64,000 bases of DNA from Candidatus Dormiibacterota bacterium (GCA_963709585.1 CAVPXI010000006.1:64001-128000), one strand, 5' to 3'; shown: positions 51,293 through 55,998, counted from the first letter of the stretch. A program made the numbers and translations. The notes: generated from the sequence alone by a model not told the origin.

Positions 51293-51367
51293 GGCCCCGT
51301 AGCTCAGTGGATAGAGCAGAGGTTTCCTAAACCTTGTGCGCAGGTTCGATTCCTGCCGGGGCTACCA
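51293..51367 (+). tRNA. tRNA-Arg(CCT)
   Basis: Acceptor GGCCCCG/CGGGGCT-ACCA; anticodon arm GAGGT-TTCCTAA-ACCTT; T arm GCAGG-TTCGATT-CCTGC. Confidence 0.95.
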
Positions 51368-51617
51368 ACGTGATCTCGCGGGTCATCGAGGCCACCCGTC
51401 TCACGTCATGGTGGCCGGACGGAGGCGTCCCCAGGGCTGGGGTGGCGGGCGATGGGGTGCGCACCCGGGTCATCGCCGCTGTCCTCGAGGTCGTGGCGAA
51501 GAGGTCGTGGCGAAGCTGAAGGATCTCGGCCTGGATGTCGATCGGCGCCACGCCCCGAAGTGTTATTGCCGCAAATGGCTATAACCCCAGAGGGAACCAC
51601 AATTGTCCGTGCTGTAG

Positions 51618-51638
51618 CGAACAGGTGTTTGGTACAAT
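51618..51638 (+). promoter_or_regulatory. LexA (SOS) box abutting an extended -10 promoter
   Basis: CGAAC-AGGT-GTTTG (51618-51631), then TGG-TACAAT (hexamer at 51633-51638), with ATG 6 nt later. Confidence 0.7.
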
Positions 51639-51644
51639 GTAGCC

Positions 51645-52856
51645 ATGGAAGCGTTCGCCATACCGGATGCGCGAGACCGTGTGCATGACGCTGTCGATGC
51701 ACTCGTCGACGAGTTCCATCGACGATGTCTCGACACACGCTCTGGCCGAGGACCTGATCGACATCCGGCGGTCAATCGATCAACTCGAAGCGGAGTTCAT
51801 CCGTCGCTTGCACCGCTTTCATCACGCTGGCGGAGCGCTGGCCGACGGCGGGGTGAGCACGGTGTCCTGGCTGCGAGCTCGTTGCGGCATGACGGTGAAG
51901 GCGGCCGCGTATCGCGTGCACCTGGCACTGACCCTGGGCGAGCTGCCGGCCACCCTCGACAGCGCCCGTGCCGGTCGCGCCTCCTTCAGCAACGTGACCA
52001 TGATCGCCCACCTCGCCGAGGATGTCGGCGTGGAGCAGGTGGCGCCGCTCGAGAGCATCCTGGTGGGAGCGGCCGAGACGCTCGAGCCCGGTGCCATGCG
52101 CACCCTCACCCAGGCCACCCGGCTGCGGCTCGACCCCGATGGCGTGCTCGCCGATGACAACCACGCCCACGAGCGCCGCTGGTTCGAGTGCGACCAGACC
52201 TATGGCGGCGTGTTCGTCCTGCGTGGTGAGCTCGATGCCGAAGGCGGTGCGCTGGTGAAGACCGCGATCGATGCGCTCAGTCACGGTATGAGCCGTGGAG
52301 AGACGCGGACGGGGTCGCAGCGCCGTGCCGACGCGCTGGTCGATCTTGCCGCCACCCAGCTGCGCTGCGGTGACCACCGCGACGTGCACGGGCAGCGGCC
52401 GCATCTCACGGTACGGTGAGTGCGGAGACGCTGCGCTCTGGGGCCGATGCACAGCCTGCCGAGTTGAGCGGCGTAGGTCCGATCCACCCGGAGACCGCGC
52501 GCCGCATCGCCTGTGACGCGGTGCGAACGCTGGTGACGGTTGCGCCGCCTGCTGATGGTTTGGCCTGGACGGCCGGGAGTACGAGTGTGAGGCCGCTCTC
52601 GGTCGGCCGGGCCACACGCACGATCCCCGCACACATCCGCACCGCGCTGAACCTCCGCGACCAGGGCTGCCGCTTCCCGGGGTGCGACCGCCCGCCGGCG
52701 TGGACCGATGGACACCACATCATTTACTGGCCGGACGGTCCAACCGAGGTCGACAATCTGGTCTCCCTCTGCCGGCCGCACCACCGCGCGGTGCACGAGC
52801 AGGGTTGGCGCATCCACATCGCTGACGGAATTGCCGTCGTGGATCCGCCACCCTGA
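51645..52856 (+). CDS. DUF222 (13E12-repeat family) HNH endonuclease (two apparent frameshifts, ~51713 and ~52413)
   Basis: STVSWLR..C, G.LDAEGG, RT.SQRRADAL, RPHL.V, GPI..ETARRIACDA and RDQGCRFPGC..P...DGHH...NL..LC..HH motifs. Confidence 0.85.
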
Positions 52857-52946
52857 CGACGTGTCCTCACGCCGTAGCGCTACCCCAACTACGCGGCTGC
52901 TGCTAGGTGGCCACCATCTCCTGCGAGCCCAGCCGAAGAGCGGCCA

Positions 52947-53594
52947 CTATTTGGCTTGAATTCCACTCACTCCCGGGGCTACCAACGTCGTGTACGCGAG
53001 CGCGCCGCCGAATCCGATCAAGCCGGTACCGGCGACGCCATCGGTGACGCGGATTGCCCGCCGTCCCATCGATCGACGCGCGCGTGCAACCCCGGTTGCG
53101 AGCATGGTGACCCACGTCAGACTGCCGATCGCAACGCCGGCGACCAGGAGCACCGCAGCTCCCGTCGTTCGCACCAGTCCGGCAGCGCTCGTCGCGGCAA
53201 AGATGGCGCCCCAGGACACGATGGTTGAGGGGTTGGATGCAGTCCCGCCCAGCGCGGTGATGAAAGCACGCTTCGGACTCGACACCTCGAACGGTGTCTC
53301 CCCGCCGATGCGCACGCGTAGCGCGCTGTAGAGCGTCCGCGCACCGAGCCACACGAGCACGATCGCACCAACCAGGCCGAGCACGAGACGCACGGGGTGG
53401 ATGGCGAGAAGTGGCGTGGCGCCGCCGGCGCCCGCGGCCGCGTAGAGGCCGTCAACCGCGGCGATGCCCGCACCGATTGCGGCACCGACTTTCCATCCGC
53501 TGCGCAGCGTAGACCTGATCAGAAACAGCGACATCGGACCGAGTTGGAGCGCGACGAAGAACCCCAATCCAAGGCCGATGATGGCGGCGTTCAT
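52947..53594 (-). CDS. LysE family translocator
   Basis: GP..L...R..L..G, G.A.VD, LVWLG and NPSTI motifs; multi-TM. Confidence 0.85.
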   Translation of the reverse strand: MNAAIIGLGLGFFVALQLGPMSLFLIRSTLRSGWKVGAAIGAGIAAVDGLYAAAGAGGATPLLAIHPVRLVLGLVGAIVLVWLGARTLYSALRVRIGGETPFEVSSPKRAFITALGGTASNPSTIVSWGAIFAATSAAGLVRTTGAAVLLVAGVAIGSLTWVTMLATGVARARRSMGRRAIRVTDGVAGTGLIGFGGALAYTTLVAPGVSGIQAK

Positions 53595-53635: not shown

Positions 53636-54199
53636 TCACGACACGCCCGGTGCCTCAACCGATCCGATTCGCTTCCAGTAGATCAGCGTCCCGGTCAATC
53701 CGCCGTGGGGCTTGAACGCATAATCGGGAATCTCGCCGGTCAGTGTGAATCCCAGCCGCTCATAGAGCGTCGCGGCGCCGCCCTCCACCGCAGTGTCGAG
53801 CACCAGCAGCGAACGCTCCCGCTCGGCAGCGACCGTCTCGAGGGCCAGCATCAGCGATGTTGCGATTCCCAGGCCTCGATGGCTCGGACGGGTCATCAGC
53901 TTGGCGACCTCGGCGCGATGCGGCTGGTTTGGCGGAAAGTCGAGCAGGAGCGTCGCCGTCCCGACCAGGACAGTGCCGTCCCAGGCCCCGAGAACGACTC
54001 GTTCGCCGCGGGCGGCGGCGCCCAGCGCATGGTCCCAGTAGGCGTCAGCCGCCGCCGGGGCCAGCGGGTGCATGAAGCTCACCGAACCGCCATTCGCGAC
54101 CACCTCGATGAGGATCTCACTCAACGATGCGCGCGTTGTCGGCGACGGCTCCAACCGGGTGATCACGATATCCGCCACGACCGTGGAGTCTGCCCGCAC
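53636..54199 (-). CDS. GNAT N-acetyltransferase
   Basis: GGSVSFM.PL, PNQPHRAEVAKL, HRGLGIA, LLVLDT, LYERLGF and GEIPDYA motifs. Confidence 0.9.
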   Translation of the reverse strand: MRADSTVVADIVITRLEPSPTTRASLSEILIEVVANGGSVSFMHPLAPAAADAYWDHALGAAARGERVVLGAWDGTVLVGTATLLLDFPPNQPHRAEVAKLMTRPSHRGLGIATSLMLALETVAAERERSLLVLDTAVEGGAATLYERLGFTLTGEIPDYAFKPHGGLTGTLIYWKRIGSVEAPGVS

Positions 54200-54230
54200 G
54201 CGGATACTTCTCGCACCGGCCGAGGACTCG

Positions 54231-55258
54231 CTAGATCGCTCCCGACGCGACCGCTTGCTCGATCCACGGAATGACGTTGTCGAGCATCTGATCGAGCGTG
54301 GTCGTTGCCTCGAAGCCGAGCACCCGCCTCGCCTTCTCCACCGACGGGATCCTCCGCTGGACGTCGTGTTCGAAGGGCGGGTCGCTGACGTAGCGGAAGG
54401 GCACGCCGTCGCCTTTGATCCTGTGCCAGATCTTCTCCGCCAGGGTGAGCACGGTCGTCGACTCGACCGTGGAGAGGTTGAAGTCGTCGTTGAGCGCCGC
54501 GGGGCTGTCCATCGCGGTGACGATTCCTTTGGCGAGATCGCCCGCGTATGTGTAGTGCCTGACCTGCGTCCCGTTCCCGAGGATATGCAATGGGTCCTGC
54601 CCCTTGATGACCTTTTGCACGAGGTCGGGCACGACGTGAACTCATCGCCAGCTTGACGTTGCCGCTGAGGATCTCCACGTCGCCGAGGGCGCGGCCCTCA
54701 CCGACACCAACGCAGTTGAACGGCCGGACGATTGTGTACGGCAGGCCGTGCTGGCTACGTGCGGCTCGGGCGAAGTACTCGACCGCGAGCTTCTGAAAAC
54801 CGTAGGACGATCTCGGAGGTGGGATCTCGAGTTCCTGACCCTCGGACGACGGCCAGGACGTGGCCGACTCGAACACCATCGATGAGCTGAGGTAGGTCAC
54901 CTTGCTCAGCGTCCCGTCGCGATGCGCTCGGATGGCCGCGTCGCAGGTGGCGGCGAGGATCCGTTCATTGGTCGCCAGCAGATCGTATGCGTATGTATGG
55001 AAATACGAGATGCCGCCGATCATCGCCGCGCCTGCGATCAGCTGGTCACAGCCGGCGAGCGCGTCGGTCATCAGGGCCGCGTCGCGCGCGTCGCCGCGGA
55101 TGAGCCGGTAGCGCGGATGGCTGTCGAACGATCGGACGACCTGACCGTATTTCGAACTCGTTGTCGACACCGACCACCTCATAGCCTTGTGTCAGCAACT
55201 CCTCAACCACGTACCCGCCGATGAAGCCGGCAGACCCGGTGACCAGGACTCGGGTCAC
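54231..55258 (-). CDS. NAD-dependent epimerase/dehydratase (two apparent frameshifts, ~55156 and ~54640)
   Basis: VLVTGSAGFIG, SSSMVF, YGFQK and RPFN motifs; both breaks lie at GAACTC and repair to GVDNESKYG and AMSHVVPDL. Confidence 0.85.
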
Positions 55259-55998
55259 GCGCCTTCTCCGGGACGGCGGCCGGATGCGCTGCGGTCTCGT
55301 CGAGTGAGGCCGAGCGCATAGAGGTACCAATGCAGGTACCGGGGAATCCACGCCTTGACCTTGAAATTGGATGTGCCGTCGGCACGGTCGAGCCAGATGG
55401 TCGGCAACTCCGCCACCGGCAGGCCGAGGCGCCGCGCTTTTGCCACCAGCTCGATCCCAAGCTCGAAGCCGGCATCGGAGTCGATGCCCACACGATCCAC
55501 GAACGCTCGCGAATATGCCTTGAAGGAGTTGGTCGCATCGTGTGTTCCCACGTGCGCGATGAGATTCAGCGAGACGCCGGCCAGGCGCGAGACGTGGCCT
55601 TTCACCCAGGGGCCACCCACCTGCTGACCGCCGCGCATGTATCGGGACGCACAGGCGACGACGACGCCGCGCTCCACGAGCCTGGTGAGTTGATCGATCT
55701 GCATCGGGTCATCACTGCCATCGGCCATGGTCACGACCACCACGTCGGCGGTAGCCTGTCCGATCCCGAAGCGCAGAGCGTTCGCCGGCCCACGTCCGAG
55801 CGTGTTGAGCACGGGCCTGAGGCGTGGCTCTCGCTGCACATACGTGTCGAGAAACGGAACCGTCGTGTCCTCGAGTGTGTCGTAGACGACGAGCACCTCC
55901 GCCGGCAGTGTGATCGCCTCAAAGATGCGTTCGAGAAACGGGACGACGGCAGCGCCCTCGTTGTATGCGGGTATCACAACGCTGACGCGTGGCTTCAC
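55255..55998 (-). CDS. GT2 glycosyltransferase (polyprenol-phosphate sugar synthase-like)
   Basis: VSVVIPAYNE, MADGS, ASRY..GG, DATNSFKAY, GFE..IEL and R..G.S motifs. Confidence 0.9.
   Translation of the reverse strand: MKPRVSVVIPAYNEGAAVVPFLERIFEAITLPAEVLVVYDTLEDTTVPFLDTYVQREPRLRPVLNTLGRGPANALRFGIGQATADVVVVTMADGSDDPMQIDQLTRLVERGVVVACASRYMRGGQQVGGPWVKGHVSRLAGVSLNLIAHVGTHDATNSFKAYSRAFVDRVGIDSDAGFELGIELVAKARRLGLPVAELPTIWLDRADGTSNFKVKAWIPRYLHWYLYALGLTRRDRSASGRRPGEGA

Follow-up and report, generated by a model that had tools for sequence, protein, structure and literature searches.

Comparative analysis of the tRNA-Arg(CCT) locus of a Candidatus Dormiibacterota bacterium (GCA_963709585.1 CAVPXI010000006.1:64001-128000; the window, a stretch of 64,000 nt of which positions 51,293-53,594 are shown) indicates that the 1.6-kb islet between the transfer RNA (tRNA) gene and a convergent LysE-type exporter gene is very probably the decayed shell of an IS481-family insertion sequence (IS). 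The shell encloses a DUF222-HNH nuclease gene that is likely SOS-regulated, and the resulting transposase-dead composite likely moved between tRNA genes in trans. A preliminary description of the locus, made from the sequence, had reported a 16-nt repeat of the tRNA end about 1.6 kb apart, which we recovered as an exact pair unique in the assembly, and a DUF222-HNH gene convergent with a LysE gene, both of which Pfam confirmed. Genomes are denoted by G-numbers (42, including G000, the carrier of the islet, with a 3.52-Mb assembly that is 88.8% complete), loci by L-numbers and contigs by C.

Intact IS481 relatives insert behind tRNA genes in one register

The sequence right behind the G000 tRNA resembled the DNA behind other tRNA genes in relatives. 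A pattern joining a tRNA T-arm to TGT(G/C)ATG gave 56 matches in 27 of the 42 genomes, 40 of them at a spacing of exactly 25 nt (control, 1), and several of these precede an rve_3 gene pointing toward the tRNA. Ten intact copies measure 1280-1296 bp and have TGT...ACA terminal inverted repeats and a single open reading frame (ORF). Their insertion point lies 24-25 nt past the start of the T-arm, with 15-16 bp duplicated; the duplication of the tRNA 3' end is identical at 16/16 positions in four copies, at 15/16 in one and at 13/16 in one, while the flanks of two others do not match and contig ends truncate the remaining two. In L257 the intact transposase passes the NF033577 IS481 model (239.4 bits against a cut-off of 224) and also matches rve_3 and HTH_32. 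These relatives thus have the IS481-type DDE transposase, TGT...ACA ends, single ORF and ~1.3-kb length by which the family is recognized, and the duplication length, 15-16 bp in the relatives and 16 bp in the window, falls within the IS481 range. A partial scan of GTDB relatives (78 loci fetched, 9 dropped for short flanks, 69 evaluable) found a tRNA gene in fixed orientation at 48 of 69 loci, against 1 of 64 controls. There, 36 of the 39 duplications found are 15 or 16 bp long, ~30 anticodon types are targeted, and the loci are labelled mostly Dormibacterota, Chloroflexota and Solirubrobacterales.

A second rve_3 element adjoining a tRNA gene was observed at L272:452-1790 (G006:C2). It has other ends (repeats of TTCGGCTGA), a transposase pointing away from tRNA-Met and an 11-nt duplication, and worn copies of such ends sit before several DUF222 genes.

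IS481 remnants and the target-site duplication in the window

The features of the islet and its borders are as follows.

51293..51367, plus strand: intact tRNA-Arg(CCT) gene (ARAGORN), whose 3' end is the target
51353..51368, plus strand: left copy of the target-site duplication, CTGCCGGGGCTACCAA, in the register of the intact IS copies
51369..52969, no strand assigned: whole element of 1601 bp, IS481 shell plus DUF222-HNH passenger, delimited by empty alleles and end matches
51369..51426, plus strand: decayed IS481 right end in exact register, CGTGATC against TGTGATG/TGTCATG in intact copies
51437..51540, minus strand: remnant of the IS481 transposase gene, IS positions ~935-1024 (nhmmer E 1.3e-7)
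51562..51585, plus strand: hairpin opening the conserved leader of the DUF222-HNH unit, common to the copies of the genus (fold -5.3 kcal/mol)
51618..51638, plus strand: SOS-box-like site CGAACAGGTGTTTG and -10-like TACAAT, a pattern shared with repair genes
51645..52856, plus strand: DUF222-HNH (13E12-type) gene of ~402 codons, by Pfam, with the HNH motif residues present
52857..52969, plus strand: what is left of the transposase start, together with the decayed IS481 left end, terminating in TCA against ACA in intact copies
52970..52985, plus strand: right copy of the duplication, CTCCCGGGGCTACCAA, 15/16 identical to the left copy
52947..53594, minus strand: LysE-type exporter gene (PF01810), which crosses the right duplication and has its stop inside the IS left end

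An IS profile matches the window at IS positions 2-58 (E 3e-5), at 935-1024 (E 1.3e-7) and at the left end (E 0.039), in the right order and orientation, and matches none of 122 random control pieces. Over 51369-51417 the right end agrees with each of the ten intact copies at 33-36 of 49 nt without gaps, the best of 20,000 random window positions reaching 28, and the right-end profile scores E 1.7e-6 in the window and E 9.5e-5 genome-wide, where this is the top match. The preliminary description had seen no recognizable transposase; the peptide LRHDLEDSGDDPGAHPIARH, encoded on the minus strand at 51442-51501, corresponds to residues 72-91 of the IS481 transposase (tblastn, 60% identity, E 1.8e-6). 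This remnant spans only ~100 nt, and the window copy has neither an intact transposase nor intact TGT...ACA ends. The left-end remnant can be aligned both to intact left ends and to the better-preserved copies of G002 and G047, and the shell has an internal deletion of IS positions ~70-930. Both IS ends flank a non-transposase gene, together with a duplication that the left end, standing in order, abuts directly; by alignment, the DUF222-HNH unit replaces approximately codons 9-60 of the transposase. Since unfiltered blastn against the IS set matched 36 of 150 controls at E 0.01, and unfiltered tblastn 74 of 200 (a rate due to one frameshifted low-complexity query), only matches far below control levels and confirmed by profile were used.

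The duplication has the register of the intact copies: CTGCCGGGGCTACCAA comprises the 3' acceptor strand, CCA and one more base, and begins, as they do, 9 nt past the T-arm start. CTCCCGGGGCTACCAA at 52970 is the best match to the predicted duplication within the next 20 kb (runner-up 11/16), and genome-wide the predicted duplication has two matches at one mismatch. The exact 16-mer first noticed, CCGGGGCTACCAACGT (51356-51371 and 52973-52988), admits no extension, and the assembly has no third copy even at one mismatch; the 16-mer was not among the 20 largest families of a general repeat search and was confirmed by direct sequence check. Judged by register, the meaningful duplication is 51353-51368/52970-52985, three bases to the left of that 16-mer, which reflects the same duplication with a three-base offset, IS end and lysE codons happening to match at those positions; in G048 the two repeat copies differ at these three coincidental bases. 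The right copy is the host's original tRNA end, still used as lysE codons.

The repeat had initially been taken for the attachment (att) site of an integrase. Site-specific insertion stands, and the repeat itself is better described as the target-site duplication of a DDE transposase from a tRNA-targeting IS481. The remains of a tyrosine-integrase island with recombination at the anticodon loop, and with the 16-mer as the worn tail of a 45-50-nt right attachment site (attR), would have parallels in G000, where 11 tRNA genes have a 3'-half repeat downstream (exact runs of 21-57 nt) and 8 of 11 integrase matches lie directly behind tRNA genes. At the same site in G008, moreover, a DUF222 gene is followed by a 44-48-nt repeat from the anticodon loop, and the bases before the right repeat in the window resemble both the G008 junction (10/12) and the T-arm. 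We nevertheless consider such an island very unlikely: none of the 11 PF00589 matches in G000 lies at the tRNA-Arg(CCT) site, where no integrase remnant was found either; the repeat is 16 nt long, against ~45-57 nt in the other islands of G000; it starts exactly where IS481 duplications start; and the spacers match IS481 ends and transposase. In the rpoB tree described below, G008 and G000/G048 each group with different empty genomes, so that the G008 filling is most simply a separate event. The reading of the repeat as a decayed attR that G000 and G008 have in common was dropped on the IS481 register, the intact copies and the rpoB tree. Of the other origins proposed in the preliminary description, a minimal element mobilized in trans and a decayed element both come close, and a decayed larger island does not hold, the original element having been ~1.3 kb.

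Empty alleles and the history of the site

The empty tRNA-Arg-lysE junction envisaged in the preliminary description exists. In 21 of 41 genus relatives (40 of 41 matched the query) the tRNA runs straight into lysE, connecting 51371 to 52970 of the window. Both predicted LysE tails were found as described, TTLVAP|GVSGIQAK in the filled site and TTLVAP|AGIEPAHKV in the empty one, and the C-terminus of the empty allele, TTLVAPAGIEPAHKV, is read antisense to the tRNA. In these 21 relatives (e.g., L040:1509-1800; window equivalent 51327-51367) lysE overlaps the 3' half of tRNA-Arg(CCT) antisense by ~41 nt, its frame ends in the anticodon loop, and the join is in the same register as the IS481 insertion point. 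The lysE genes away from tRNA-Arg lack the repeat sequence and end in TT(I/A/V)H(D/E)(R/H), which disposes of the idea that the 16-mer is conserved in unlinked LysE. The probability of a chance or coding match with no insertion at all is accordingly close to nil: 3 of the 16 bases first noticed do coincide between IS end and lysE codons, as G048 reveals, but the empty alleles refute it, as do the unlinked lysE genes and the presence of only two copies in the genome.

An rpoB tree of 34 genomes places empty genomes on both sides of filled ones. G000 and G048, which have the same islet, adjoin one empty genome (91/73), G008 pairs with another (97/85), and a clade of the five genomes in the tree with DUF222 at tRNA-Arg is rejected (p-AU 5e-5). 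The insertion is genuine and represents the derived state, and the site has either received more than one insertion or lost its insertion precisely on several occasions. Among read contigs, from sequencing runs that best match the window and may include the source of the assembly, no strain-level empty junction and no circle was seen, contigs being unable to show absence. One loose contig end at 51368 continues into lysE-type sequence and likely stems from another species in that run.

Two further fillings or marks at this tRNA were observed. In G008 (L074:6596-6643) the site is filled by a 44-48-nt tRNA 3' half from the anticodon loop, with the LysE tail and stop retained; the filling carries a small gene and a DUF222-HNH gene, and no integrase was seen there. 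In G047:C9 (L191:6302-6344) the full tRNA-Arg(CCT) gene is preceded, 6 kb upstream, by a 5' half of tRNA-Arg(CCT), as left by an element that rebuilds the tRNA from the other side.

The DUF222-HNH passenger

Pfam assigns the passenger to DUF222 (PF02720, E 5e-25) and HNH (PF01844, E 7e-5), one of nine DUF222 matches in G000. The unit opens with the hairpin, continues through the SOS-box-like site and the -10-like hexamer, and closes at the stop codon. A RecA-like gene, two uvrA genes and six DUF222 genes have the box pattern in front of them too, and lexA and recA are preceded by sites resembling it; on this shared pattern the promoter is likely LexA-controlled and inducible by DNA damage. In Mycobacterium tuberculosis, six 13E12 genes are bound by LexA (PMC3381160).

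In the assembly the gene is split over three frames by one-base frameshifts near 51714 and 52411. Both are likely assembly errors and not decay, because near-identical contigs and the comparison with G048 show one-base indels: base 51714 is absent in two runs (one contig of 414 nt has no other difference), one contig has an extra base at 52411, and one-base indels between the window and G048 also affect the neighboring gene. The call at 52411 is less sure, as that contig could derive from a paralogue.

The structure model of the protein has a middling confidence (predicted local distance difference test, pLDDT, 61.5), and Foldseek returned no match to it at E 0.001. A wider structure search gave weak matches of the model to ParB/Spo0J/KorB-like helical folds (Z 4.7-6.7) and to HNH domains (Z 4-5.5); among the top 50 matches there was no recombinase or transposase fold, a result that excludes nothing.

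Recurrence of the composite and alternatives to its proposed movement

In 9 others of the 102 regions upstream of DUF222 genes, a transposase remnant meets the DUF222 hairpin at the junction found in the window (E 6e-5 or better; best control, E 0.038 among 315), at tRNA-Arg, tRNA-Val, tRNA-Lys and non-tRNA places. The large internal deletion is common to the tRNA-Arg copies of G000, G048 and G047 (and of G002, by alignment only) and to the tRNA-Val copy of G046, with G047 and G046 sharing one further small deletion. In G047:C14 the DUF222 stop is followed by a well-kept left end ending ACA and then by a tRNA-Ser(TGA) duplication (E 8.8e-6). In G002 a left end is accompanied by a worn Arg duplication, and G003:C1c, outside the later parsed set, has a left end (E 1e-5; 0.22 by profile) with a doubtful Lys duplication. 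That a deleted element without a working transposase stands at several tRNA types is explained most simply by movement of a non-autonomous element in trans, and intact donor transposases occur in relatives. Given the IS481 origin, movement of the composite as a unit is quite probable.

In the mechanism that we favor, the DDE transposase would recognize the end of a tRNA gene and cut it 16 bp apart, after which repair would rebuild the tRNA end and leave the old one behind the element. A DUF222-HNH unit, from hairpin leader to stop, would have entered an IS copy near the transposase start, and most of the transposase would have been deleted thereafter. While its ends were still intact, the composite was likely carried to further tRNA genes, with an intact IS481 transposase supplied in trans. 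With both terminal trinucleotides changed, the window copy is now probably immobile.

Several observations weigh against this history. The left end in the window is weak by itself (E 0.039, 0.21 and 0.046 in separate profile searches), and the element now ends CGT...TCA, with one base of the duplication changed as well. No intact transposase of the tRNA-targeting group was found in the 88.8% complete G000 assembly, searched except for 8,000 bases (best tblastn E 0.64). No composite with both ends in one contig was found at a second kind of tRNA: the two halves of the G047 composite are on different contigs, and the G046 copy at tRNA-Val has neither a left end nor a duplication behind DUF222. 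This G046 copy is also 99.9% identical to that of G044, and the two were counted once. In a tree of 51 DUF222 copies, from which 13 partial copies were left out, the copies group by genome and not by site (19 changes against 40 when shuffled), which fits recent spread or gene conversion. By an independent profile, only 10 of the 102 upstream regions have IS remnants. Finally, at a non-tRNA site in G023 (L143, G023:C6), DUF222-HNH is cleanly inserted after a stop codon and lacks IS ends.

The main rival to movement as a unit is gene conversion, since conversion between IS copies could spread both the shared junction and the deletion. An intact IS481 would then have inserted at tRNA-Arg and the DUF222-HNH gene would have come later, by its own route or by conversion from a composite at another place in the genome, with the IS sequence as the flanking homology, the composite never having transposed. 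The grouping by genome agrees with this, as does the rejection of the four tRNA-Arg copies as a clade (p-AU 9e-9), and REP13E12 loci are described as gene-conversion hot spots in M. tuberculosis (PMC13061034). DUF222 stands at other points in some shells (after IS position 154-171 in G005 and G052), inserts without IS ends in G023, and is accompanied by partial transposase remnants with no IS end in view in G000:C5, G008 and G048:C258. Such a late arrival nonetheless requires the same junction and large deletion to have been copied into separate IS copies in separate species, whereas composites at Arg, Val, Ser and Lys with the correct register or a duplication are more simply explained by transposition. 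We therefore rate a late arrival as somewhat unlikely, and continue to prefer movement of the composite in trans.

The preliminary description had also offered a homing-type element driven by its own HNH, in which the nuclease cut the empty tRNA-lysE junction, homed or transposed, and made the duplication. The HNH motif is complete, and DUF222 copies follow T-arms more often than random DNA does (16 of 102 lie within 330 nt, compared with 88 of 20,000 random windows, in a count whose kin are not independent and whose pattern misses tRNA-Val). The G023:C6 insertion, for which there are four empty alleles (L373, L374, L375 and L377), has a possible worn short duplication (9 nt exact) and is a possible lead to the footprint of the DUF222-HNH gene itself. 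Against self-homing at tRNA-Arg, duplications of identical length and register flank IS481 copies without an HNH gene; ~190 nt separate the left repeat from the start of the DUF222 unit and 113 nt separate the end of the unit from the right repeat, the DNA in these gaps being IS481-derived; and most DUF222 copies lie away from tRNA ends, at many unrelated sites, with no single fixed cognate site. We find it extremely unlikely. A second DUF222 site tested in G023 gave no clean empty junction, and G000, used as the empty reference for DUF222 sites of other genomes, gave few clean junctions.

Another route is improbable and would combine parts of the above: the nuclease gene, seated at one spot in the IS481 transposase gene, would be taken by the dead shell to new tRNA genes with a borrowed transposase, and the HNH nuclease, once SOS-induced, would cut intact IS481 copies at that spot, repair turning them into carriers. 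If true, this would amount to homing inside one IS family, and 13E12 genes would have their first concrete route of spread. On the sequences surveyed, IS481 is not the general vehicle of the DUF222 gene, because IS remnants are limited to 10 of 102 upstream regions and the G023 insertion is clean without IS ends.

Relation to known mobile elements

IS481 duplications are mostly 6 bp, some being ~15 bp; ISMac4 and ISA0963-1 have ~15-bp duplications and the eukaryotic IS481EU 15-16 bp (PMC10045372). The elements described here share with the ~15-bp members a DDE transposase, TGT...ACA ends, a single ORF, ~1.3-kb length and a 15-16-bp duplication. They differ in having tRNA 3' ends as a fixed target, entered in a single orientation, a target for which the main text of that source does not use the word tRNA at all, and the window copy differs further in lacking the transposase and carrying a passenger. 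The intact relatives form a small safe-site integration system, a one-gene IS reaching many tRNA genes in one register without harm, and a short tRNA 3' repeat is not always the att site of an integrase.

Fixed targeting by related elements has precedents. The ISAba32 subgroup of the IS1202 family targets XerCD (xrs) sites (10.1101/2022.12.17.520857); like the present group, these are one-gene DDE elements related to IS481, with TGT ends and a fixed distance and orientation from a varying conserved landmark, but there the landmark is xrs and the duplication 5-6 bp, against tRNA genes and 15-16 bp here. A REP-targeting IS481 element is known as well (PMC11708052). Transposition adjoining the T-arm of a tRNA gene is shared with the casposon of Aciduliprofundum boonei, which inserts by the T-arm with a 15-bp duplication (PMC5137440), and with Tn7-like elements that have a tRNA-targeting TnsD (PMC11406308). 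The casposon uses a Cas1 homologue and the Tn7-like elements TnsABC with a dedicated targeting protein, whereas the IS481 elements reach many tRNA types with one gene. Among the titles and abstract openings listed by a literature search, none dealt with an IS481 that targets tRNA genes or with DUF222 carried within an IS. What the locus adds to the known kinds is a DUF222 composite in a tRNA-targeting IS481 shell.

Mobile insertion cassettes are named alongside non-autonomous IS derivatives. Such derivatives and transporter IS (tIS) carry passengers (PMC9330008), and the composite resembles both in having IS ends around a passenger gene and in that mobility would need a transposase in trans. 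Unlike in those elements, the passenger here is a nuclease gene that itself looks selfish and is multicopy, the ends have decayed, and mobilization in trans is what we infer for this case. The locus suggests that IS481 ends can carry ~1.3 kb of foreign cargo.

With the 13E12 (REP13E12) genes of M. tuberculosis the passenger shares PF02720 and HNH domains, multiple copies, an SOS-box-like promoter and signs of homogenization (PMC3381160, PMC13157036, PMC13061034). The host here is of the Candidatus Dormibacterota type and not an actinobacterium, and those sources, in the parts cited, name no IS vehicle. For the spread of DUF222/13E12 genes, the composite offers a candidate vehicle whose junction within a transposase gene is defined, though it would account for only a minority of copies.

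Additional observations

Some tRNA islands of G000 with 3'-half repeats are small (2.7-5 kb) and have no integrase match nearby (L180-L183, L188). The copies at L400 (G046:C73) and L401 (G044:C163) are 99.9% identical over 2.9 kb in species far apart in the rpoB tree, pointing to recent transfer on an island or to a binning error. In L400, L401 and L421 the DUF222-HNH copies share one breakpoint within the HNH part, at islet position 1395 (window 52763). Downstream of lysE, a long ORF region at 54163-55351 is split across frames, and one-base indels relative to G048 at ~54640 and ~55157 suggest assembly errors there too.

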